DNA of 64,000 bases from Giardia intestinalis (Eukaryota). Both the position numbers and the translations under genes were made by a program. This document shows positions 39,887-55,595 of this stretch, one piece after another; the first letter of the stretch is position 1; every line of letters starts with the position of its first letter. Under the pieces are notes generated by a model, which saw only the letters and a program-made list of their open reading frames with translations, was not told the DNA's origin and made no database searches. The DNA lies in assembly GCA_000002435.2 (NCBI GenBank), contig CM018792.1; one strand, given 5' to 3'.

Positions 39887-39984
39887 ACCATATCACCAAC
39901 GCATGCAGAGACGTCAAAGGTTTGAAGAGTCCGTAGAGTACTAGATTGCCCCAAAGACTAAAATTCAGAAATTAAAAACATTAA

Positions 39985-41307
39985 ATGGTCAAAGGACTGG
40001 CGAAGGAGCAGAAGGTGCGTCTCTACCTTGGTGGACTGAAGAATGTAGAGCAGCTAATGAAAGGGGATGTTTTGATGGGCGACGACGGGAATCCACGTAC
40101 CATCAGTGCTGTGCATTCGTCAATGTCCAAAACGTACACCATTACCTATTCGTCCTATTTGGATGTTAAGGACGACCGGAGTTTTGTCTGTGGAGATGAT
40201 GCTGTTCTTATTTTAATCCCCGATGGGAACCGAGAGGTGAATAGAATTATTAATACCGGAGCAGACAACCAATATGTGGTTGAGTTTGTTGAGCCTGTCA
40301 CGGACGCAATGAAGTCCATCTCTGGCGTCAAGCTGCAGTGGAAAGTCTTTGCACAAGCTGACGACGCGCTTTCATATGTGGATCGTAGTCTCCCGAATTT
40401 TCTCTATGAATCTAAGTTGAGCGACTTCATCAAGTTAGAGCCTAAGCTTCAGCGCATGTTCAAGCTTGTTCGTCCGCTTCTTCCAATACGTTTTGTTGAC
40501 GCAGTAACGGTGATTCAAGATGAAACCAAAACAGACGTTGATATCTTGAAGAATATGGATATTCGCCCAACAGACCTGCCATGGTTGTGTGGCCTCTATC
40601 TGATTACCGGGATATGTATTGATGAGAGGTCGTTCCGCTTCCACTTGAAGGAGCTCAATAGTAACATTGCGGGAGAGGTTAAGCGTATATTCCGCTGTTT
40701 GAATTCCTATTATGAAATACAATTTGATGAGGCTTCGGAGAATTACACCATTAGGTTCCAAGGTGCCAGTGAGACAAACGACTTTTTCAAGCGGTTTATG
40801 ATCCAGTTTGGAATGTATGACGCTCGTACGAAGCGATACGTGAAGGATTCATTGAACCCACAGGTGTATCTTGAGAGCTTCAGTAGAATACGGGGCCCTT
40901 TTCTAGCAGGGATCCTCGATGGTAGCTCTGGGTACGGATTATCGGACATAAACCATGGACTGGAGTGTTATATTAGAGGGATCTCATCACCGGCGACACG
41001 GGAGGTGGTCGCTGACCTTGCCCGTTCGTGCTCTCTTAGCGCTGTTGTTGACCAGAGTGACAATAATACGCTAATCTTAGCAGGCGGAATGCTCTTCCGT
41101 GTACCGTGTGTCTCCACAATTCCTAAGGACTTTCCAGGGCTAGTGTCCCTCACATCCTACCCCAACCCAGACGGGAGCTCTGTTCTGCTTGGCATGCCTA
41201 TGCCATTCTCCATAAAAGAGTCTGGCACGCGCGAATGCTATTTCTTGGACATCCAGGAGCCGAACAAGCGGTGCCTTCTCTCCGACTACACCGTTGTTCA
41301 TCTCTAG
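39985..41307 (+). CDS. free-standing intein-like protein: a Hint domain plus two LAGLIDADG motifs, VMA1-intein/HO-endonuclease family, with degenerate catalytic residues, 440 aa
   Basis: The N-terminus GLAKEQKVRLYLGGLKNVEQLMKGDVLMGDDGNPRTI aligns with PI-SceI CFAKGTNVLMADGSIECIENIEVGNKVMGKDGRPREVI. The block-B-like SFVCGDDAVLIL aligns with KFTCNATHELVV. LAGLIDADG-like WLCGLYLITGI sits at about residue 200 and FLAGILDGSSGYG at about residue 306, the same spacing as in PI-SceI. The C-terminus is ...YTVVHL against PI-SceI ...VVVHNC. The gene has its own ATG behind the initiator aaattaaaaacattaaATG and its own stop, so it has no exteins. Confidence 0.75.
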   Translation: MVKGLAKEQKVRLYLGGLKNVEQLMKGDVLMGDDGNPRTISAVHSSMSKTYTITYSSYLDVKDDRSFVCGDDAVLILIPDGNREVNRIINTGADNQYVVEFVEPVTDAMKSISGVKLQWKVFAQADDALSYVDRSLPNFLYESKLSDFIKLEPKLQRMFKLVRPLLPIRFVDAVTVIQDETKTDVDILKNMDIRPTDLPWLCGLYLITGICIDERSFRFHLKELNSNIAGEVKRIFRCLNSYYEIQFDEASENYTIRFQGASETNDFFKRFMIQFGMYDARTKRYVKDSLNPQVYLESFSRIRGPFLAGILDGSSGYGLSDINHGLECYIRGISSPATREVVADLARSCSLSAVVDQSDNNTLILAGGMLFRVPCVSTIPKDFPGLVSLTSYPNPDGSSVLLGMPMPFSIKESGTRECYFLDIQEPNKRCLLSDYTVVHL

Positions 41308-41332
41308 AGGTTAGAAATCCATCAGAGTAAAT

Positions 41333-42880
41333 TTACTCACTATGAGGGACGGCTGAAGCAGTGGGTGGATGGAGGCTTGCGCTTGTGGATAAAGCGCTAC
41401 CAGTCACTTCCCGGTGCTTCTTCAGAGGAATATATTTGGCAGCATCCTCAATCTCGTCCTTCGTAAGAAACGTGAGATTCTGTGGTTTCTCGGGGACATC
41501 ACAGCGATCACACTCCGTGAGGTGCTCAACAAAGTTCACGTCTTCGTCAACTGGATTCATCTTCGAGATCATGCGCTCAAGCTCCTGGTTCACGCGCTTG
41601 GCTTCTAAGTCGTCATCATACCCTTGTCTCAGAGTGTTGCGTAGGTTACTTCTATTGAGCTCATCCTCCCTTCGCTGAGCCTCATCAAGCTCCTTTAATC
41701 GGGCAGCATTGGCACGCTCGCGCTCTATCTCCTCTCTACGCTGCCGCTCGGCTTGTTCCTTCTGGTTTTTGATTTCGTCCGCCAAGTCTTTCGCCATCTG
41801 CCTATTGTGCTTTCGTGTCTCCTCTGCCAGTCGTGCATTTTCAGCGGCTATTTGATCGTGTAGCTTCCTTGCTATTTCCTTTTCACGCTCGCGCTCCTCT
41901 GTCTCCTTGGCCAATTGCTCGTCTTTAAGACGTTTTTGTTCTGCAGCAAAGTCATTTAGTTCAGCGAGTTTTCTAAGTCTCTCAGCTTCAGTTTCTTCCT
42001 GCCTTCCTACGGGCCCAATATAATCGTTTATCGCTGCCTTCTCCTCCTCGCGTCGCCTATCAGCCTCCTCCTTGCGCCTACGGATGTCAGCCTCGTGGTC
42101 ACGTTTCTGTTGGTCGGCAAAAGCACGCTGGCGTTCCAGTTCTCGCTGAGCATACTCCTGTGCCTCTCGACGTGCAGCCTCTTGTTGTTCCTTTTCGCGT
42201 TCTAACTCGCGCTGCATAGCCTCCCGTGCAGCTTGACGTGCCTTCTCACTCGCTCTAATTGCGGCCTGGGCATCATCTTGCACCCGCTTTCTCTGCAAAC
42301 GTTCAAGAGCAGCCTCGATATCAGCCAACTTTTTAGCATCATCTGCCTGTTGCTTGGCCGTCTTCTTTTCTTTGTCGCGTTCCATCTCTTCCAATAGCTT
42401 CCTCTTCGCCATATTTAGCTCATTGATGCATGTTGGACACCATGCATCCTCGCAGCGATCAACAACAATTCCAGATTTCATTGGATCATTGTGCCTGCAG
42501 TGAAGCGCCTTCTGCTCATTATAGTCTTTCATAGCAGCAAGAAGGTCCTTCTTTTCATCCAAGCTCATTGCTGCTAGTTGTGCAGTGGTGACGTAGGGTG
42601 CTGCTTTGGGCTGAATCCGAGAGCTGCCAGCAGAACCAGTGCTTGATCGAAGACAGCCTTCTTGTGGAGTCCTCTTTGCAGACGAGTTACCCACTGGAGT
42701 CATGGAGCCAGAGGGCGCCAAATCGTCCAACTTCAGATCACGCGGCTTAGCAGCTGGACTCACCACAGGTGGCTTCTCGCGGGGAGCCACAACCTTAAGC
42801 TCAGTGGAGCGGCTGATGGGATGGATGGGCTCGCTGGGAATGCTAACACCCAGGCTTCCCAGAATATCAAAGTCTGTCAT
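41333..42880 (-). CDS. highly charged E/R/K-rich coiled-coil protein, 515 aa
   Basis: The ORF carries long REEEK/ERQR repeats. The initiator cgataaaaaaATG lies upstream. Confidence 0.75.
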   Translation of the reverse strand: MTDFDILGSLGVSIPSEPIHPISRSTELKVVAPREKPPVVSPAAKPRDLKLDDLAPSGSMTPVGNSSAKRTPQEGCLRSSTGSAGSSRIQPKAAPYVTTAQLAAMSLDEKKDLLAAMKDYNEQKALHCRHNDPMKSGIVVDRCEDAWCPTCINELNMAKRKLLEEMERDKEKKTAKQQADDAKKLADIEAALERLQRKRVQDDAQAAIRASEKARQAAREAMQRELEREKEQQEAARREAQEYAQRELERQRAFADQQKRDHEADIRRRKEEADRRREEEKAAINDYIGPVGRQEETEAERLRKLAELNDFAAEQKRLKDEQLAKETEEREREKEIARKLHDQIAAENARLAEETRKHNRQMAKDLADEIKNQKEQAERQRREEIERERANAARLKELDEAQRREDELNRSNLRNTLRQGYDDDLEAKRVNQELERMISKMNPVDEDVNFVEHLTECDRCDVPEKPQNLTFLTKDEIEDAAKYIPLKKHREVTGSALSTSASLHPPTASAVPHSE

Positions 42881-47543: not shown

Positions 47544-49673
47544 ATGCAGCTACCTAAGGTTTATCGGAAGTGCAAAACATGTCTAGTAGGAAATAGTCTG
47601 CTCCATTGCGTCGCCGAATCACTCACTGTACAAGGTCTGACTCCTGAAAAACTAATCTCACTAGCCAAGCGGCTAGTAAGCAAGTGCTCTGGGGTGGGTC
47701 ACGCTTTGATTTCATACTATAGCGTGACTATAAAAGGTGTTAGCACAATAGAGTTTATATCTCCATATGTAGGATGGTCCATAGAAGACTATCTCATGCT
47801 TACACTATATGAGGGAAGGACCATTCCAGAGGAACAAGTATATAGATTTATGGCCGCCATCATTTGGATACTTAACCAGCTCGTGCACATATGCAGAACC
47901 TCACTTCTTATGTGGATCTTTCTTGGATACGCCAATCTATCACTAAATAATTTCTGCCTAGATGAGTTTGGAGCAATACGTTTCCGCTTAGATCTAGGTC
48001 ACACGCTAAAGAACATGATACTGGTCGATGAACGACTTGCGGACTGGCCACGGATCAAAGGGAGTGAGTTAGGTGTTCATCTTAAACTGCATATAATACA
48101 GTGCATCTTACGTCTAGCGTTTCCCCTTAACAATTTAGAAATAAATGGAATTGATCCGTACTCGGGCGCATTTTCTCGAGTATTTAAAGACTCGGAACGA
48201 AGCAAGGTGTTTTGCAGTCGCATGGAGCGTTTAATTTATTTATTTCAAAAAGAAGACATAACGTTAAGTCATATATTACATACAAACTTATTCAAAACAG
48301 AATTAGAAAAGTACTGGCAATCCTTGGGCATAACAGCAGATGACGATGCATCAACGCCTCTCATCGACTCTGTGCGTGCAAACGATATACAAAAAATATA
48401 CAATTTTTATGGACGGCAGGCTGGAATGATGACTTCTTCTGGTAAAACTGCACTTATGATAGCAGCTTCCAGAGGAGACACACGCGTGACCACACTCTTA
48501 GCGACACGGGAAGCTAACTACAGAGACATTTATGGAAACTATGCAACTCTGCTGGCAATCAAGAATGGATACAAAAATGTGGCGTTGCACCTTGCAGCGT
48601 ATGAGTCCATGGTTCTTCAAGAGGATGGTATCACCCCGTTAATGCTTCACGTTATCGGCAAAAATCTACAAGTCCCATTTCAAGAACTGATACAGGATGC
48701 GGGGAAGCAAATGAAAAATGGATTTTCTGCTCTTATGATTGCTTCCTTGACTAATGATCTGGACTATTCAATGGTACTCGCAAAGAAAGAGGCAGGATTG
48801 TGTAACGCAGAAGGGAAGACAGCAGGAACACTAGCTAACGAGCAAGGAAATACACAAATTTCACAATTCTTGGCTCGTTATGAAATAGTAATGGGAGTTG
48901 ATGGAGAAACACAGCTTCATCAAGCAGTATTAGCGGGTGATCTGCGCGCAGTGGAAGCTTATGTACATGCTGCACGTTCATATAATAAGGCTGGCTATAC
49001 AGCGTTAGGATTAGCAGCAAAGTTCAATCATACTGATATCATAAAAACTCTGATTCCCCACGAAGCTGGGATGCGGTGTAAAGTTAGCTTCGAGGCATGC
49101 GGCAGGACGTTTCAGGATCCAACGGCTTTGGCCATAGCAGTCTATCATAATAACGAGCAGGCAGTGAATCTTTTAAAACGGTATGAGGCAGGATTGGGAA
49201 TGAAGCCCCTCCAAACTACTGCCATGATGCTTGCAGCAGCGTGCGGATATAGCGGACTTATATCTCTTCTGCGAACTCGAGAAGAAAAGATGCAAGACAC
49301 ACACGGCAACACCGCGCTGATGTACGCCGTGAATAGCTCTTCCCTAGACGCAGTTTATAAACTAATGAAATACGAATCTCGAATACAAAATACAGAAGGA
49401 TACACTGCACTTATGTATGCTGCCTTCCACAATAAGGTACAAATTGTTGCTGCTCTTATGAAACTGGAAGAGGGGATGATCAATGTGCAAGGCGAACCGG
49501 CTATTATCTGTGCTATCAAGGCAGAAGCTAAAGAGTGTATAAGTATACTTGTTCGAGGATCAGAGGTGTCGTATTCTAAACAGTGTATTGAAATGATTAA
49601 ATCCAGTGCTACACTGACTTGCGCTATGAAGAGAGTTATGTTGAGGTATTTTAAAGAGGAGAAATTTCATTGA
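47544..49673 (+). CDS. degenerate NEK-like pseudokinase domain fused to an ankyrin-repeat array (Giardia 21.1/NEK family), about 709 aa
   Basis: The N-terminal about 300 aa show a kinase-like fold with degenerate motifs (LSLNNFCLDEFGAIRFRLDLG, with no HRD or DFG). The C-terminal repeats are TALMIAASRGD, TPLMLHVIG, TALMYAVNSS and TALMYAAFHN. The initiator gataactttaaaaATG lies upstream. Confidence 0.8.
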   Translation: MQLPKVYRKCKTCLVGNSLLHCVAESLTVQGLTPEKLISLAKRLVSKCSGVGHALISYYSVTIKGVSTIEFISPYVGWSIEDYLMLTLYEGRTIPEEQVYRFMAAIIWILNQLVHICRTSLLMWIFLGYANLSLNNFCLDEFGAIRFRLDLGHTLKNMILVDERLADWPRIKGSELGVHLKLHIIQCILRLAFPLNNLEINGIDPYSGAFSRVFKDSERSKVFCSRMERLIYLFQKEDITLSHILHTNLFKTELEKYWQSLGITADDDASTPLIDSVRANDIQKIYNFYGRQAGMMTSSGKTALMIAASRGDTRVTTLLATREANYRDIYGNYATLLAIKNGYKNVALHLAAYESMVLQEDGITPLMLHVIGKNLQVPFQELIQDAGKQMKNGFSALMIASLTNDLDYSMVLAKKEAGLCNAEGKTAGTLANEQGNTQISQFLARYEIVMGVDGETQLHQAVLAGDLRAVEAYVHAARSYNKAGYTALGLAAKFNHTDIIKTLIPHEAGMRCKVSFEACGRTFQDPTALAIAVYHNNEQAVNLLKRYEAGLGMKPLQTTAMMLAAACGYSGLISLLRTREEKMQDTHGNTALMYAVNSSSLDAVYKLMKYESRIQNTEGYTALMYAAFHNKVQIVAALMKLEEGMINVQGEPAIICAIKAEAKECISILVRGSEVSYSKQCIEMIKSSATLTCAMKRVMLRYFKEEKFH

Positions 49674-50611
49674 ATACCAAACCTTTGTGATAGTTTTCTT
49701 GCCCGTTCCATGTCCATGCTTAGTACAGTTGATAGTCCTTTCCAAATGACAGGGTCGAACTCATGTTGGTAAGCAGAATCTACTTGATCATCTGATTGCT
49801 GCGTATCCGAAAAACAAATTGTTGACCTAACATATAAAGACTCATATTCGTGCTTATTAAGGTCTATTTGTAGACCATGAATTGCGTAAAGTCGTTGCTG
49901 TTCTATCTTATCTGTGTATCTTCTTATCGTAATTAATCCTTCTGCATACAATTGCGCTATATCAAAGATAGCATGCACCGTTCGAGTAAAGTCTGTTGGG
50001 CTGAGAAATACGAAGGCCAGGGGGTAGAAGCCGCGGCGCGAGAGCTCCGTGACCCGCGCGAGGAGCCCCTGCTTCCGGCGCTCCTGGAGCTCGGCGCCGC
50101 ACATCGCGAGGGCCTCGTAGCGCCGCCGCTCGACGGCCTGCGCGCCGGAGGGCTCTGCCTCCCGGGGCCGCGGGGGAGCCCTGGGGGCTGCGGGCCCTGC
50201 GGTGCCGGCGGCGCACCCCGCGTACAGCGAGGCCGCGAGCTCGGGCGGGAAGCGGGCGGCGTACCCGGCCTGGAACGCGTCGGCGAGGAGGCGCAGGTCG
50301 ACGCGCGGCGGGTCTGCAGGGGCCCCGGCCCGGGGGAGGAGCCGCAGCTGGCCGCGGAGGAAGCCGGCGCCCTGGTCCTCGGCCGCCCGGGCCACCCGCG
50401 CCTCCAGGCTCCGGGCAGACAGGCGCACCGTGGCGGACAGCGCGGCCTCCGTCTGCAGCATCAGGCCGACGTCCCCCCGGGGCTGGGCGGCGTAGGACTC
50501 GTAGCCGTCCCGGAGCTCGGCCAGGAGCGCCGTGACCGCCGCGTGGTCCCGGGCCTGCGCGGCCGCCTGCACCCGGGCGGAGACGCTCGCGAGGCGCGCA
50601 CGGGGCTCCAT
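49667..50611 (-). CDS. hypothetical protein, 315 aa, spanning the island boundary: the N-terminal about 200 aa are encoded in about 80% GC DNA and the C-terminal about 110 aa in normal-composition DNA
   Basis: An in-frame ATG at 50609-50611 is preceded by an AT-rich patch inside the island. GC3 periodicity is strong up to ...GGC TTC TAC CCC CTG GCC TTC and then becomes GTA TTT CTC AGC CCA ACA... The upstream extension in the six-frame track (to 52009) is Arg/Pro/Gly junk. Confidence 0.55.
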   Translation of the reverse strand: MEPRARLASVSARVQAAAQARDHAAVTALLAELRDGYESYAAQPRGDVGLMLQTEAALSATVRLSARSLEARVARAAEDQGAGFLRGQLRLLPRAGAPADPPRVDLRLLADAFQAGYAARFPPELAASLYAGCAAGTAGPAAPRAPPRPREAEPSGAQAVERRRYEALAMCGAELQERRKQGLLARVTELSRRGFYPLAFVFLSPTDFTRTVHAIFDIAQLYAEGLITIRRYTDKIEQQRLYAIHGLQIDLNKHEYESLYVRSTICFSDTQQSDDQVDSAYQHEFDPVIWKGLSTVLSMDMERARKLSQRFGIQ

Positions 50612-50653
50612 CGGACGGGGCGGAATTTTGCCGGCCGGCCAAAAATTCACTCG
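50612..50653. promoter_or_regulatory. 42-bp divergent promoter inside the GC island, with two AT-rich initiator patches flanking GCCGGCCGGCC (aattttgccggccggccaaaaatt)
   Basis: These are the only AT-rich nucleotides for kilobases. They sit exactly between two divergent ATGs, at 50611 on the minus strand and 50654 on the plus strand. Confidence 0.55.
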
Positions 50654-51793
50654 ATGGACTGCATCGGCCGCGGCGTCCTCCTCCCCCCGGGCGGGGCGTG
50701 CTCGTGCGGGGCGCTTCTGGCGGAGCTGCAGCGGGTCTGCCCCCTCCTCGCCGCCTCCCCGGGGGTCTGCGCCGCGCCCCGGGCCCTTGCGTGCTGCCAC
50801 CAGCCCCCGTGCCTCGAGATCGCGCCGGCGCCGGCCACCCCGCGCAGCGCCGTCCGGGTCCCTGGGTCCGCGTGCACGGCTCCACCGCCCGCCGCAGGGC
50901 CCCCGGAGGCCGCCCCGGCCGAGAGCGTCCAGGTGACCCTCAGCGCCCAGCGCGAGTCGTTCGTGATGCAGACGATGCGGCAGGCGCACTACGGCGGCGG
51001 AGAGGCCCCCGCGAGGGCGGAGAGCGCCCGCCTGCCCGCCCCGCAGGCCTCGGACCCGAGGGAGGCCCGGCGGAGCCACGCGTCCCGCCCGCGGACGGCC
51101 GGCCCCCGCCTCCCCGCCTGCCCCGAGGAGCCCCCCGGCAGGGTCCAGTTCCGGGGCGCCCCCGAGGCCCCGCCCCTGCGCTGCGAGCCGGCCCCGCCCT
51201 CCGAGTTCAGCGACTTCGGGTGCGAGCTGCTCGCGGCGGGCCAGCCCGAGGACCGGCGGGTCTGCGGCGCCCCGTGGGTGGACGCGCAGGACCTGCTGAG
51301 CGACGGCTCCGAGCACAGCGAGTTCTACCGCCTCGTCGAGAGGGAGCTCGCGCGGCTTCCGGAGCCCGCGGCCCCGGCCCTCCCGGAGAGCGAGCCCTCG
51401 CTGGACGCGCTGCCCGTGCACGCCTCGCCCCGGGGCCCGCAGATCATCGAGCCCACGCCGGCCGCCCTGCAGGAGCCAGAGGAGCCCGCGCCCCCGCAGC
51501 CCCCCACGCCGGGCCGCTCCGACAGCGTCTCGGCAGACATCACGGAGTCGCTCCTCGTGGAGGGCCGGCCCCTGCCCGACCGCCCCCCGGGCCCGGAGCC
51601 GTCCGAGGGCAGCGCCGGGTACAGCGGAGAGGCCTTCGACAGCTCCGGCTCGCCCCGGGGCCTGACCGACGAGGCCGCGGGGTCTGCGGGCCTGGACGAG
51701 GAGGACCTGCTGGGGTCCGTCGGCGGGGACCTGCGGGCGCTGCTCATGGACAGCGGGTCCGGGTCGCTGTCTGCGGGGGCCTGGCCGGAGTGA
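50654..51793 (+). CDS. GC-island gene: Cys-containing N-terminus and an acidic Pro/Glu/Ser-rich disordered C-terminus, about 379 aa
   Basis: Strong GC3 periodicity in this frame. The ATG follows ccaaaaattcactcgATG. The TGA stop is embedded in AGTGAAC at 51789-51795. The upstream part of the tool ORF (49952-50653) is antisense to the previous gene and is rejected. Confidence 0.55.
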   Translation: MDCIGRGVLLPPGGACSCGALLAELQRVCPLLAASPGVCAAPRALACCHQPPCLEIAPAPATPRSAVRVPGSACTAPPPAAGPPEAAPAESVQVTLSAQRESFVMQTMRQAHYGGGEAPARAESARLPAPQASDPREARRSHASRPRTAGPRLPACPEEPPGRVQFRGAPEAPPLRCEPAPPSEFSDFGCELLAAGQPEDRRVCGAPWVDAQDLLSDGSEHSEFYRLVERELARLPEPAAPALPESEPSLDALPVHASPRGPQIIEPTPAALQEPEEPAPPQPPTPGRSDSVSADITESLLVEGRPLPDRPPGPEPSEGSAGYSGEAFDSSGSPRGLTDEAAGSAGLDEEDLLGSVGGDLRALLMDSGSGSLSAGAWPE

Positions 51794-51816
51794 ACTCGGG
51801 AGAGCCTTTTTATTGA

Positions 51817-54327
51817 ATGGATTCTGCGCCACTCGCCGTCGCGATCCGGGAGCACGTCCCGGGCCCGAGGCCCCCGCCGCGGCCGTCCGGGGGGCGGTCC
51901 CTCTTCGCGCAGGCCGTGGCCGCCGGGGCCGGACAGACCGGGAGGCCCTTCGCCCTCGGGCAGCCCCCGCCGCGCGCCCCGGCCCCAGCGCCGCCCCGGG
52001 GCCCCCCACCGCCCCCCGCCGCAGAGGACCCGGGCGGGCCCCTCCTCGGGTACGGGGGCGCCGCAGACCCGGAGGCCGTCCCGTTCTGCAGCGCGGCGGA
52101 CATCGGGCTCCTCTGCCGGTCGACGAACCCCGCCCAGCGCGAGTACGGGCTCCGGATGCTCGCGAACGCCGTCGCGCTCCGGCGCGTCCGGGACGGCGGC
52201 GCCCCCGACCCCGTCCTCGAGGCCCTGCTCTGCCTCCCCGCCGACCCGCACGCGTGCCCCTCGTCTGCCGGCCACCTCCTCCTCCTGGGCCTGCGGGACG
52301 CCCTGGAGTCCGGGAGCCCCGGCCTCCTCGACGCCGCCCTCTCCGGCCTCGCCACGGTCTTCGTCGCCGACGAGGGCTTCCTCAGCGAGACCGTCCACGT
52401 CGGGGCCGCGCTGCTCGGGCTGACGTCCAGCTCGGTCGCCTTCCCCCTCGGCTCCCTGCTGCGGCGGCTCGTCGAGCACGGGCTCCCGGGGCTCCTGGGC
52501 CAGGCCCTCGACGCCGCCGCGCGCGCAGACGAGCGGCGCCGGGAGCGGCTCGCCCACAGCGCGTACCTGCTGGCCGAGCGCGTGCTCATCGGCTGCTGCC
52601 CCGCAGACGAGCCCCCGGAGACCGCCGCCGGCCTGCGGGCCCTCGCGGAGCGGCTCCTCGCGGCGCTCCTGGGCGAGCTCGCCGGGCTGGCGGAGACGGG
52701 GGCCTTCCTGACGACCGCCTCCCGCGTCGCCCTCCGGACGCTCTGCTACGACCACGTCCTCGACGGCCACGCGCTCGGCCGGGACGCCGTCGCCCTCCTC
52801 GTCGAGTCCCTCGAGGCGTTCGTCGGGGCGCTCCCCGGCCAGGACGAGGCGGTCCGCACAGAGCTCCTCTCGGCCGCCACGCTCCACTACCTCCTCGTCG
52901 CCCGGGTCCTGCGGGGGAGCCCCGAGCTCTGCGCCCTGCACGCGGCCGTCTCTGCGACGTGCGCCGCCGCCCTGGAGCGCCACGCCCCGGCCGCCCCCGC
53001 GGAGCTCAGCGCGCTCCTCGTCCTGCTCCGGATCCTCCGGGCCCGGGCCGCCGTCCCCCGCGCGCGCCTGGGGCTCTCGGAGGCATGCTTCCGGCGGCTG
53101 GTCGACTGGCGGGCCCCGCCCGAGGCCGGGGGCTTCGCGCTGCCCCAGGGGCCCTCCGCGGCGTTCGCCCCGTTCTACGCCCTCGCGGCCGTCCAGTGGC
53201 GCGGCCCGGGCGAGTGGGGCGCGGCGGAGGCCTGGGTCGGCTGCGTGATGGACGTCCTCGCCAGCGGGCCCCCGGTCGCGCGCTGGGCGCCCCCGGCCGT
53301 CGACGCCCACCGGCGGGCAGGCGTGCTCCCGTGCGCGGTGACCGACGCAGGGGTCGCCCTCGCGCTCCTCGTCGCGGCCCTGGCGGCCGTCTGGGGCCCC
53401 GGGCTCCCGTTTGCCGCCGGCCTCGCCGAGCGGGTCGGGGAGCGCCTGGCAGGGCTCCCGGCCGAGTTCCGGTTCGTCGTCGCGTTCCCGCTCGCCCGGC
53501 TCCTCCCCCCGCTGCCCGCTATCGAGTGCGGGCTCTACCCGAACGCGGCGCTCCTCGGGGCGCTCCGGGCCGTCACGGGCCACCCGGGCTACGACCCCGC
53601 GGCAGAGGCGCTTGCGCACGTCGACGCCCGCTGCCCGTGCCCCGCGCTCGCGGCCCTCCACGCGGCGTGCGTGCTCGCCTCGGACGGGATGCGGCGCGAC
53701 GGGGCGTGGCGGCTCGCGGTCCTCCGGCTCGCGCTGCAGCGCCTGGCCGGGCTGGAGACCGCAGGGGCCGCCCGGGGCCGCGTCCTCGCGTACGGGCTCC
53801 TCTGCGTCCTCGACACGCTGACGGGCGTCTGTCGCCTCCCCCCGGACGCCGCGGCCCTCCTCGCGGAGACGCTCGCCGGGGTCCTCCGCCTCGCCCGCGC
53901 AGGCCCCGCCCCCGCCGCCGAGCTCCTCTACGCAGCGCCCGCCGGGGGGCTCCGGACGCTCGACGCCGCCGCCGGCGCGTTTGTCGAGGGCCTCCACGGG
54001 GGCGCGGCGGTGCTCCCCGAGGCCCCGCTCGTCTACCTCGCGCTCCTCCACCCGCAGCTCGTCCCGGACCCCCGCCGCCGGGCAGAGCTCTGGTCCGGGC
54101 TCGCGCTCCTGCGGCTCGACTTCGCGGCGCTCGACGGGGGCCTCCTCGCGGGGCTCTGCGAAGACGACCCCGCGCCCGTCCTCGCGTGCCTCGCGTGCTA
54201 CGAGCGCCGCGCAGAGACCGCCCTGTCGCGCCGCGTCCTCGCCCGGTACGCAGAGGCCCACCGGGGGCAGAGGCCCGACCGGGTCGTCGTCGCGGCCGTC
54301 GAGGAGGCCCTCCGACCAGCGGGCTAG
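51817..54327 (+). CDS. GC-island gene: Leu/Ala-rich alpha-helical repeat protein, 836 aa
   Basis: Of the overlapping frames, only this one shows codon-position asymmetry (GC3 about 95%, GC2 mixed) and a protein-like composition (L, A, E, D, V). The competing frames translate to Arg/Pro/Gly strings. The AT-rich leader ctttttattgaATG lies upstream. Confidence 0.7.
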   Translation: MDSAPLAVAIREHVPGPRPPPRPSGGRSLFAQAVAAGAGQTGRPFALGQPPPRAPAPAPPRGPPPPPAAEDPGGPLLGYGGAADPEAVPFCSAADIGLLCRSTNPAQREYGLRMLANAVALRRVRDGGAPDPVLEALLCLPADPHACPSSAGHLLLLGLRDALESGSPGLLDAALSGLATVFVADEGFLSETVHVGAALLGLTSSSVAFPLGSLLRRLVEHGLPGLLGQALDAAARADERRRERLAHSAYLLAERVLIGCCPADEPPETAAGLRALAERLLAALLGELAGLAETGAFLTTASRVALRTLCYDHVLDGHALGRDAVALLVESLEAFVGALPGQDEAVRTELLSAATLHYLLVARVLRGSPELCALHAAVSATCAAALERHAPAAPAELSALLVLLRILRARAAVPRARLGLSEACFRRLVDWRAPPEAGGFALPQGPSAAFAPFYALAAVQWRGPGEWGAAEAWVGCVMDVLASGPPVARWAPPAVDAHRRAGVLPCAVTDAGVALALLVAALAAVWGPGLPFAAGLAERVGERLAGLPAEFRFVVAFPLARLLPPLPAIECGLYPNAALLGALRAVTGHPGYDPAAEALAHVDARCPCPALAALHAACVLASDGMRRDGAWRLAVLRLALQRLAGLETAGAARGRVLAYGLLCVLDTLTGVCRLPPDAAALLAETLAGVLRLARAGPAPAAELLYAAPAGGLRTLDAAAGAFVEGLHGGAAVLPEAPLVYLALLHPQLVPDPRRRAELWSGLALLRLDFAALDGGLLAGLCEDDPAPVLACLACYERRAETALSRRVLARYAEAHRGQRPDRVVVAAVEEALRPAG

Positions 54328-54334
54328 CGTTCAC

Positions 54335-55264
54335 TCAATCAGGGGCACCTGACCCCAGGGCGGCCCGCAGGCCCGCGACCTCCCCCCGGAGCCGGGCGAC
54401 CTCGTCCTCCAGGGCCTTGAAGCGCAGGGCCGTCGCGACCGCAGGCGCCCCGCCCTCTGCGTCGAGGAGCTCCACGAGGGCCGCGGCGGTGAGGCGGCGC
54501 TCCGGCTCCAGGACGAGGAGGTGGGCGAGGACGCCCCGGACGACGGGGTCCCCGACCGCGCCCAGGTCCGGCCGCCAGCCCGCGACGTAGACCTCCGCGG
54601 GGGCCCGCCCGGAGAGGAACGGGGGCCTGCCGCCCGCCGCGAGCTCGTAGGCGACCATCCCGAGGCTCCACATGTCCGCGGCCGGCGTGTGGCTCCCGCC
54701 CCGCAGGACCTCCGGCGCGGCGTAGACGGGGACGGCCATGGAGGCGAGCCCCCCGGGGCCCTCCCTGCAGAGCCCGAAGTCGGAGATGGCGAACTCCGCC
54801 CCGGCCTCGTCGAGGAGGACGTTCGCGGGCCGCAGGTCGCAGTGCGTGAGGGCGGGGAGCGGGGCGCCCGCGGCGTCGGTCTTCCCGGGCCGGTGGAGGT
54901 AGGCGAGCCCCGCGCCCACCTGGCGGAGGACGGCGACGACCATCTCGCGCGGGGCGAGCTGCCTTCTGCGGCGGAGGCTCCGGATGGCCCCGTCGAGGGA
55001 GCCTGCGTAGCGCCGCATCTCGACGTAGATGTAGCCCTCGTGCCGGACGACGCGCCCGTACTCGACGACGTTCGGGTGGCGGAGGCGCGGGAGGGTCCGG
55101 AGCTCGAGCTCGAGCGAGGCCTGCGCGTCGGGGGGCAGCCCGTCGGTCGGGATCTCCTTGACCGCCCTGTCGGGGGCGCTCTTCAGGCCGTAGACGGTCC
55201 CGTGGGCCCCGCTCCCGAGCTCTGCGCCCAGGTCTTCGAGGAGGGCGTCGATGGCCTCGGACAT
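54335..55264 (-). CDS. GC-island gene: protein kinase with an intact catalytic core and a C-terminal coiled coil, 309 aa
   Basis: Contains GSGAHGTVY, VKEI, HCDLRPANVLL, SDFGL and APE motifs, with GC3 near 100%. The initiator gattaaaaagATG sits in the AT-rich flank. The TGA stop is embedded in AGTGAAC on the minus strand (54335-54329). Confidence 0.85.
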   Translation of the reverse strand: MSEAIDALLEDLGAELGSGAHGTVYGLKSAPDRAVKEIPTDGLPPDAQASLELELRTLPRLRHPNVVEYGRVVRHEGYIYVEMRRYAGSLDGAIRSLRRRRQLAPREMVVAVLRQVGAGLAYLHRPGKTDAAGAPLPALTHCDLRPANVLLDEAGAEFAISDFGLCREGPGGLASMAVPVYAAPEVLRGGSHTPAADMWSLGMVAYELAAGGRPPFLSGRAPAEVYVAGWRPDLGAVGDPVVRGVLAHLLVLEPERRLTAAALVELLDAEGGAPAVATALRFKALEDEVARLRGEVAGLRAALGSGAPD

Positions 55265-55268
55265 CTTT

Positions 55269-55595
55269 TTAATCCGCGACTGGGCGATTGGGTGGGCTCA
55301 ATCGCTTGGGCTCAGATCGGGGCCTGTATAGATTCACCGAACAGATATGACAATTAGCGCACTTACTACCTAAGTTACGTCTTCCTGCAGCAGAAAAATC
55401 CAATGAGACCACCGCGCTCTTAGTAATATTAGAATTTGCGCATTTTGTCTTATCGTTATTAGAGTCAAAGATTTTTATCCTGGCACAATTATTGGATCTG
55501 TCCTTGTAGTTAGTAGTGGAAAATCCCACTCCACATGATGTTTGTGCCCATATAAACTGGATAATTAAGGCAACAAACACAAATCTGCCAAGCAT
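55269..55595 (-). CDS. possible small secreted Cys-containing protein, 108 aa, with a signal-peptide-like N-terminus (MLGRFVFVALIIQFIWAQTSCG)
   Basis: An ORF in the AT-rich gap next to the island. No initiator or polyA motif was found, so this is speculative. Confidence 0.25.
   Translation of the reverse strand: MLGRFVFVALIIQFIWAQTSCGVGFSTTNYKDRSNNCARIKIFDSNNDKTKCANSNITKSAVVSLDFSAAGRRNLGSKCANCHICSVNLYRPRSEPKRLSPPNRPVAD

Follow-up and report, generated by a model that had tools for sequence, protein, structure and literature searches.

A free-standing intein-like gene of Giardia intestinalis with substituted splicing and endonuclease residues is conserved across the sampled diplomonads

The gene GL50803_4149 is located on the plus strand of a 64,000-nucleotide stretch of Giardia intestinalis DNA (contig CM018792.1, assembly GCA_000002435.2), the whole of which is referred to as the window. 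In the open reading frame (ORF) list of the 64-kb window, it is a single uninterrupted frame of 440 amino acids (aa) at positions 39985..41307, in exact agreement with the coordinates and length given in the initial annotation. It encodes a complete, free-standing intein-like protein, as indicated by a Pfam Hom_end_hint match above the cut-off and by exact proteome peptides. The 25 bases preceding the start codon (39960..39984, +) are AT-rich, of the type usual in Giardia initiators. This initiator or promoter was read off the sequence as aaaattcagaaattaaaaacattaa; it is directly followed by the ATG and ends with an in-frame TAA (39982-39984). Because this TAA occupies codon -1, there is no room for an N-extein. 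A C-extein is absent as well, since the stop codon TAG (41305..41307, +) abuts the last residue of the Hint domain (..DYTVVHL). A Giardia-type poly(A) signal, AGTAAAT (consensus AGTRAAY), is found 19 nt past the stop codon (41326..41332, +). Read in sequence, the flanks thus place the gene in no host protein with N- and C-exteins, as would be typical of an intein, and the earlier description of a gene with its own AT-rich initiator, start and stop codon holds. The same start, i.e. Met plus two to three residues followed by block A, is shared by all orthologs and fragments. GL50803_4149 is almost certainly both intein-derived and free-standing.

The intein origin is supported by profile, sequence and fold comparisons. 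The protein matches the Pfam family Hom_end_hint (PF05203) with 37.2 bits (cut-off 32.1) and an E-value of 4.2e-9 over aa 15-439, and the last profile position is reached. The PF05203 model is built from VMA1-type inteins and HO. The score above the gathering threshold, together with the Hint fold, assigns the protein to the HINT superfamily. All top PDB sequence matches obtained with phmmer are entries of the yeast VMA1 intein PI-SceI, whose reference sequence used here is identical to 1dfa/1vde at 454 of 454 positions. A profile of seven orthologs detects PI-SceI with an E-value of 3e-7 and PRP8 inteins with about 1e-4. In hhalign, aa 5-366 are aligned to PI-SceI 2-374 (94% probability, E 1.4e-7). 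An AlphaFold2 model of moderate quality was obtained (predicted local distance difference test, pLDDT, 69.7; predicted template modelling score, pTM, 0.59), with good quality across the Hint domain and LAGLIDADG lobe 1 and poor quality over aa 300-400 (pLDDT <50). The best 11 PDB matches of this model in Foldseek are all PI-SceI chains (E 1e-16 to 1e-20, TM about 0.6). The structural residues of both LAGLIDADG motifs (G203, G209, G309 and D312) are kept as in related inteins. An NCBIfam scan of the protein gave no match.

Several parts of the initial annotation can be judged from these comparisons. The predicted Hint domain was recovered by profile search, the predicted fold proved to be that of PI-SceI, and the two results together bear out a free-standing Hint plus LAGLIDADG protein of intein origin. 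The claimed alignment with PI-SceI along the whole length stands for aa 5-366. Direct alignments to PI-SceI end at about aa 366, and support for the C-terminal blocks comes instead from the Pfam profile, other inteins and the fold match. A kinship to the VMA1 intein and HO in particular was not retained: the seven-ortholog family profile scores PI-SceI at 31-33 bits versus 58-77 bits for inteins in Rpb1, ResIII helicases, eIF2-gamma-like GTPases and AAA ATPases, and the protein has no zinc finger of the HO type. A second homologue search seeded with the alignment gained one distant intein. Giant-virus inteins match the model as well as PI-SceI does in a BFVD fold search. From these fold matches and the types of host genes, a giant-virus intein may be conjectured as the source of the gene; scans of viral contigs for P0015 and P0045 found nothing.

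The domain architecture follows that of PI-SceI. The N-terminal part of the Hint domain comprises aa 4-90 with blocks A and B (39994..40254, +). It is followed by an insert matching the DNA-recognition region of PI-SceI (aa 91-160; 40255..40464, +), which was delimited by hhalign, conservation and charge analysis, contains the invariant PNFLYE and has a net charge of -1 to -4 across the orthologs. The middle Hint strand and linker (aa 161-195; 40465..40569, +) contain the segment LVRPLLPIRF..T.IQ..TK and are 43% invariant in the ortholog alignment. LAGLIDADG subdomain 1, assigned by hhalign, spans aa 196-300 (40570..40884, +), with motif 1 LPWLCGLYLITGI at aa 198-210. Subdomain 2 (aa 301-365; 40885..41079, +), with motif 2 RGPFLAGILDGSSGYG, was placed by HMMER alignments to PI-SceI 312-374. 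The protein then leaves the endonuclease domain and returns to Hint through the segment LAGGMLFRVPCVSTIPKDFPGLVSLTSYPNPDGSSVLLGMP (aa 366-405; 41080..41199, +). Blocks F and G form the C-terminal part of the Hint domain (aa 406-440; 41200..41304, +), which the Pfam profile covers to its last position and which ends in ..DYTVVHL, not in ..VVHN followed by Cys, Ser or Thr.

Conservation is unevenly distributed along this architecture. In the N- and C-terminal Hint parts, the DNA-recognition-like insert and the first LAGLIDADG lobe, 14-21% of the columns are invariant. This fraction is 48% in aa 301-365, where the hairpin YGLSDINHGLECYIRG following motif 2 is nearly invariant on both faces. The corresponding hairpin in homing endonucleases forms half of the DNA-binding saddle. 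The most conserved segment is the box at aa 366-405, with 70% invariant positions across orthologs that are only 44% identical overall. Model confidence is low over the second subdomain (aa 301-365), and the box has pLDDT values of 32-41.

The positions required for catalysis in PI-SceI were mapped onto GL50803_4149. In the N-terminal Hint part, the splicing nucleophile Cys1 corresponds to Gly4, and Asn76 and His79 of block B correspond to Gly70 and Ala73. In block G, His453 is retained as His439 and the terminal Asn454 is replaced by Leu440. The catalytic Asp218 of the first LAGLIDADG motif is replaced by Thr208, and its counterpart Asp326 in the second motif by Ser314 (Ser315 in hhalign). 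Further residues of the nuclease site differ as well (D229 to H220, K301 to N291, T341 to G332), and the equivalents of these three are also not conserved in the diplomonad orthologs.

Related inteins served as a control. An exhaustive profile search of 1.8 billion representatives yielded 1,353 proteins at E<=1e-3, of which the best 150 were used; the matches were mostly internal to longer proteins. A Pfam scan of ten, picked mainly for long alignments, revealed host domains in eight (Rpb1, ResIII helicase, eIF2-gamma/EF-Tu-type and other GTPases, AAA ATPase). The remaining two are host-embedded (P0054) and Hint-only (P0154). By their residues, the profile detects ordinary competent inteins, from which the diplomonad family deviates at each of the catalytic positions. 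Cys is found at intein position 1 in 162 of 174 N-terminal matches of related inteins versus Gly, Ser or Thr in diplomonads: Gly4 in all five Giardia-type sequences, Ser with only three residues upstream in Spironucleus salmonicida and Hexamita inflata, and Thr in other Hexamitinae-like fragments. The block B His (His79 of PI-SceI) is Ala or Thr in the orthologs. The last two residues are His-Asn in 101 of 107 related inteins, followed by Thr, Ser or Cys, whereas the diplomonad proteins end in HL, NV, GM or SV and then stop. An acid occupies the first LAGLIDADG acid position in 24 of 30 related inteins (23 Asp, one Glu); all ten diplomonad sequences have Ala, Thr or Cys. At the second acid position (profile position 314), Asp is present in 25 of 36 related inteins, compared with seven Ser and one Cys in eight of eight diplomonad sequences. 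Gly203 and Gly209, in turn, are conserved in related inteins and diplomonads alike.

Cys1, the His-Asn pair and both acids are thus present in no diplomonad sequence. The exchanges of Cys1 for Gly, of the terminal Asn for Leu (VVHL) and of the LAGLIDADG acids for Thr and Ser had all been read correctly in the initial annotation. For block B, the substitution by Gly..Ala was confirmed, but the motif replaced in PI-SceI is Asn..His and not Thr..His. Judged by these residues, both enzymatic activities, protein splicing and DNA cleavage, have very probably been lost.

Some of the related inteins are of interest in their own right. P0067 is an intein in the P-loop of a eukaryote-type eIF5B, with Cys1 and THN|T intact and both LAGLIDADG motifs degenerate; by its residues, it is an example of an intermediate state, with splicing apparently retained and the nuclease decayed. 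Two intein-bearing GTPases have domains of several eIF2 subunits, namely P0041 (GTP_EFTU, eIF2_C and eIF-5_eIF-2B) and P0062 (S1, GTP_EFTU and eIF-5_eIF-2B). These could be fusions of alpha, gamma and beta initiation subunits or merged gene calls.

Homologs, which the initial annotation had suggested looking for in other diplomonads, were found in every sampled lineage. Full-length orthologs of 426-440 aa are present in two G. intestinalis-like lineages (93% and 84% identity), G. muris (67%), a further Giardia-like lineage (56%), Spironucleus salmonicida (46%) and Hexamita inflata (44%). Assemblies also contain a dozen ORF fragments that represent further Hexamitinae-like copies. Hexamitinae use a genetic code in which TAA and TAG encode Gln. 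In-frame TAA/TAG (Gln) codons number 22 and 5 in the Hexamitinae orthologs (loci L008, 5001-6299, and L009, 5001-6281), with 22 in the Spironucleus gene, and TGA serves as the stop. In metagenome and SRA assemblies, the gene is found only as short ORF fragments (P0007-P0013, P0017, P0048, P0049, P0063), and these gene calls were probably broken by the deviating code under standard-code calling. Because standard-code calling breaks the Hexamitinae gene, database counts under-represent the family.

The gene is under strong purifying constraint. Compared with the closest ortholog, the proportion of synonymous differences is near saturation (pS 0.705), that of nonsynonymous differences is 0.037 (pN), and the ratio of nonsynonymous to synonymous substitution rates (dN/dS) is 0.018, with the minimum of dN over aa 300-400. 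With 92.7% aa identity, GL50803_4149 is the best-conserved gene locally; five neighbours reach 61-85% in the same genome pair. Relative to G. muris, its identity is 67% and that of the neighbours 26-43%. The flanking genes are identical in another G. intestinalis lineage, and the downstream pair is kept in G. muris. GC content and GC content at third codon positions (GC3) match those of neighbouring genes. No paralog is found within the 64-kb window. Mobile elements are patchily distributed, polymorphic for presence and absence, and prone to decay; this gene is present in all sampled diplomonads, syntenic and constrained at the dN/dS given above.

The protein is expressed. A two-dimensional (2-D) gel proteome lists two peptides, VFAQADDALSYVDR and DSLNPQVYLESFSR, under "hypothetical protein GL50803_4149"; they are exactly aa 121-134 and 288-301, which identifies the gene as GL50803_4149 and the window as DNA of G. 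lamblia WB. The protein is among 187 proteins identified from 2-D gel spots of the soluble fraction. In tandem mass tag (TMT) proteomes of drug-resistant and drug-sensitive lines, it was covered to 20-36%, at an unchanged level. It is not listed in the secretome tables. GL50803_4149 appears to be fairly abundant, and it is a working gene, not a relic.

These observations suggest the following scenario. A complete PI-SceI-type intein, i.e. a Hint domain with an inserted two-lobed LAGLIDADG domain, would be the ancestor of GL50803_4149, and its establishment as a separate nuclear gene would predate the divergence of the sampled diplomonads. The present protein would neither splice nor cut DNA, and the intein scaffold may have been reused as a non-catalytic binding module. 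The working surface is predicted to comprise the second LAGLIDADG lobe (aa 301-365) and the 40-residue box that follows it (aa 366-405), with 48-70% of their positions invariant. A specific nucleic acid, DNA or RNA, would be the most likely ligand by ancestry, and its binding would not entail cleavage, in the manner of WhiA or the LAGLIDADG maturases. A functional, non-catalytic binding protein that arose by ancient domestication of a whole intein is assigned a probability of roughly 0.6. A nucleic acid as its ligand, proposed by analogy, is a tentative assignment at less than even odds, and a protein ligand is almost as likely in view of the acidic charge. Given this charge and the apparent abundance, a nucleic-acid binder is placed only slightly ahead of protein binding or another new function.

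Several points weigh against this scenario. The Pfam models LAGLIDADG_3 and Hom_end have no match in GL50803_4149 even at E<=10, so the profile search for this domain proposed in the initial annotation failed; as the Pfam endonuclease models are silent, the LAGLIDADG domain rests on hhalign, the fold match and the structural Gly and Asp residues of both motifs. All seven orthologs are acidic, with an isoelectric point (pI) of 5.2-5.8 and a net charge of -4 to -8, in contrast to PI-SceI (pI 8.1). Where PI-SceI carries positive charge (Hint-N +5, DNA-recognition region +2, lobe 2 +3), the values in the diplomonad orthologs range from 0 to -5, a pattern that does not suit a classical DNA saddle. 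Of the domestication with a DNA-binding role that had been suggested earlier, the domestication is supported by dN/dS, orthologs, synteny and peptides, and the DNA binding is weakened by the acidic pI and the lost positive charge. Since pLDDT is below 50 over aa 300-400, the predicted binding surface is without structural backing, and ligand binding as such is putative. Finally, an Asp is found two residues past the second acid position (DGSSDYG) in P0004, Spironucleus, Hexamita and most Hexamitinae-like fragments; it could, in formal terms, still be a residual half-site in these lineages. G. intestinalis and G. muris have Gly at this site, so the Asp, if it ever mattered, is dispensable within Giardia.

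The alternative that survives best is a scaffold repurposed away from nucleic acids, as a protein-protein adaptor, a chaperone-like subunit or the carrier of a new small-molecule or metal site. The putative new site would be formed by the box at aa 366-405 together with C328, C349 and C375, three cysteines that, like the box, are invariant. This would fit the acidic pI in all orthologs and the loss of positive charge from the DNA-contact regions of PI-SceI, as well as a soluble protein whose level does not differ between the trophozoite lines compared and which is sufficiently abundant for the set of 187 proteins from 2-D gels. Conservation also peaks in a Pro/Gly-rich box of low predicted order that has no counterpart motif in PI-SceI, and the same possibility has been raised in a review for the LAGLIDADG domain of WhiA (PMC3384342). 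However, all characterised domesticated LAGLIDADG proteins still act on or with nucleic acids (PMC3384342), the overall pI predicts nucleic-acid binding only weakly, and neither a partner nor a localisation nor an added domain points to such a role. This alternative is therefore regarded as possible, well short of likely.

An enzyme that still acts as a site-specific endonuclease or nickase, either as a homing element or as an HO-like host nuclease with a non-canonical active site, is improbable. In its favour, the LAGLIDADG helices and the structural Gly and Asp residues are intact, the invariant Lys381 is located near the position of K402/K403 of PI-SceI, the Hexamitinae-type orthologs have the Asp mentioned above, and there are other stand-alone intein-like ORFs that retain the acids (P0045, P0075, P0118 and a Klosneuvirus 'Homing endonuclease'). 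In the diplomonads, however, acid 1 is Thr, Ala or Cys and acid 2 is Ser or Cys in every sequence compared (10/10 and 8/8), and the equivalents of D229, K301 and T341 are not conserved. Removal of the acids abolishes LAGLIDADG catalysis (PMC3384342), and the zinc finger that HO needs (PMC7282813) is missing. Moreover, a single copy in the window that is syntenic, present in all sampled diplomonads and has a dN/dS of 0.02 is the opposite of homing genes that invade and decay.

Lost catalytic residues, as in decaying inteins, and the silent Pfam endonuclease models would also fit a decaying intein relic or pseudogene, an intein with overlooked exteins, a contaminant or a recent horizontal transfer, but these are hardly credible, since the 440-codon frame is intact in at least seven lineages at saturated synonymous divergence with a dN/dS of 0.018 and peptides occur in two independent proteomes, TAA stands at codon -1 and a stop right after the last Hint residue, and GC and GC3 are as in the neighbours, with flanks that are conserved in another G. 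intestinalis lineage and, in part, also in G. muris.

Downstream of GL50803_4149, a convergent gene (41333-42880, -) encodes a Lys/Glu/Arg-rich, coiled-coil-like protein of 515 aa without a Pfam match. It ends 25 nt from the stop of the Hint gene, so that the 3' ends and poly(A) signals of the two genes nearly touch (41308-41332). Locally, it ranks second in conservation (85% in the genome pair compared above), and it still adjoins the Hint gene in G. muris. Elsewhere in the window, a block of 5.3 kb (50015-55290) has about 79% GC and razor-sharp edges, compared with about 46% GC in the rest of the window. Its left edge is located inside a minus-strand ORF (49667..52009), the C-terminal 115 codons of which have normal composition. 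At its right end, a protein-kinase domain is encoded (54338-55264, -; Pkinase, E 4e-32) with a GC3 of 0.96. Neither the window as a whole nor its segment at 49-57 kb gave an Rfam match, and ribosomal DNA (rDNA) was rejected as an explanation for the block on these grounds.

The detection of the domain itself is not new. All orthologs already carry Pfam matches, NCBI names the proteins of G. muris, Spironucleus and Hexamita 'Homing endonuclease', and a proteomics table from 2016 lists GL50803_4149 with 'Hom_end_hint'. Literature searches on Giardia and other diplomonads in connection with inteins, homing endonucleases or the gene identifier turned up this table entry only; among the papers covered, none analyses GL50803_4149 or links inteins to a diplomonad. 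The interpretation, namely that the diplomonads share an ancient domestication of an entire intein that has lost both activities, appears to be new, and the name 'Homing endonuclease' is probably misleading as to function. Inteins are usually regarded as selfish elements and nothing more. The textbook example of an intein taken over by its host is yeast HO with its WHO relatives, in which the nuclease was kept and a zinc finger added. Here, a whole intein has been kept through diplomonad history without splicing residues, nuclease acids or an added domain, and it is more conserved than its neighbours. Such retention without catalytic residues would mean that the fold of an intein can, by itself, be put to a new use in the cell. 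GL50803_4149 is specific to a group that includes the human parasite Giardia, and a human homolog is not expected. In a stronger version, it would be the second, independent and much older eukaryotic intein domestication after HO/WHO, and the first in which a whole intein was kept with both activities discarded, with a new, probably essential function dating from the diplomonad ancestor, centred on aa 366-405 and perhaps not involving nucleic acids. In this full form, the claim is doubtful and offered as speculation.

Of the known systems, PI-SceI (also VDE, the Saccharomyces VMA1 intein; 1vde, 1dfa, 1lws) shares the architecture of the diplomonad protein but is embedded in a host protein, which GL50803_4149 lacks. 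Cys1, His79, the His-Asn pair and the +1 Cys of PI-SceI have no equivalent in GL50803_4149, and D218 and D326 are replaced. The diplomonad protein is acidic instead of basic, and vertically inherited instead of mobile. PI-SceI is about 17% identical to it and is not its closest intein by score.

HO and WHO are similarly stand-alone genes of intein origin, without exteins and without protein splicing, and HO is a domesticated cellular gene (PMC7282813). They are active nucleases with a C-terminal zinc finger of Cys-X-X-Cys repeats and lack intein motif G; VDE is the closest relative of HO (PMC7282813). They keep the LAGLIDADG acids, cut MAT or FBA1 and occur in a few yeast genera only. In the diplomonad protein, by contrast, the nuclease acids are gone and a motif-G-like strand (DYTVVHL) persists, and the protein is present in every sampled diplomonad lineage. 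No zinc finger, CxxC motif or extra domain is found in GL50803_4149, where Pfam detects Hom_end_hint alone. HO was set apart from the diplomonad protein by its published description and the VDE scores, not by the HO sequence. To our knowledge, no structure of HO exists.

WhiA/DUF199 and LAGLIDADG maturases such as bI3 are precedents for dead LAGLIDADG scaffolds kept as binding proteins (PMC3384342). In WhiA, DNA binding is carried out by an added helix-turn-helix (HTH), and there is no Hint domain (PMC3384342). The diplomonad protein shares the dead LAGLIDADG domain but keeps the entire Hint domain and has neither an HTH nor any other added domain. Maturases are encoded inside introns and bind their own intron RNA, whereas the diplomonad protein has no known cognate intron. 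WhiA is the closest functional analogy, and the likeness is one of putative function only.

Free-standing ORFs of giant viruses and metagenomes have a similar layout. Klosneuvirus A0A1V0SK08 and Bodo saltans virus A0A2H4UV68, both matched over the whole protein in BFVD under the name 'Homing endonuclease', and the metagenomic P0045, P0075, P0118, P0026, P0081 and P0152 are whole proteins starting from block A without Cys1 and without His-Asn. The LAGLIDADG acids are degenerate in P0026, P0081 and P0152, like those of the diplomonad protein, and intact in P0045, P0075 and P0118. In contrast to the diplomonad family, these ORFs are distant in sequence (45-60 bits), their context suggests mobile or viral DNA, and none has the diplomonad-specific box or evidence of long vertical inheritance. 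P0045 adjoins a DUF5886 gene, and the extein-less metagenomic ORFs include the loci L006 (1302-2570) and L007 (541-1581). In P0079, a dual-specificity-phosphatase-like N-terminus (HCTTGKS) is fused to a splicing-dead intein. Free-standing intein derivatives may thus be commoner than the literature on HO and WHO suggests.

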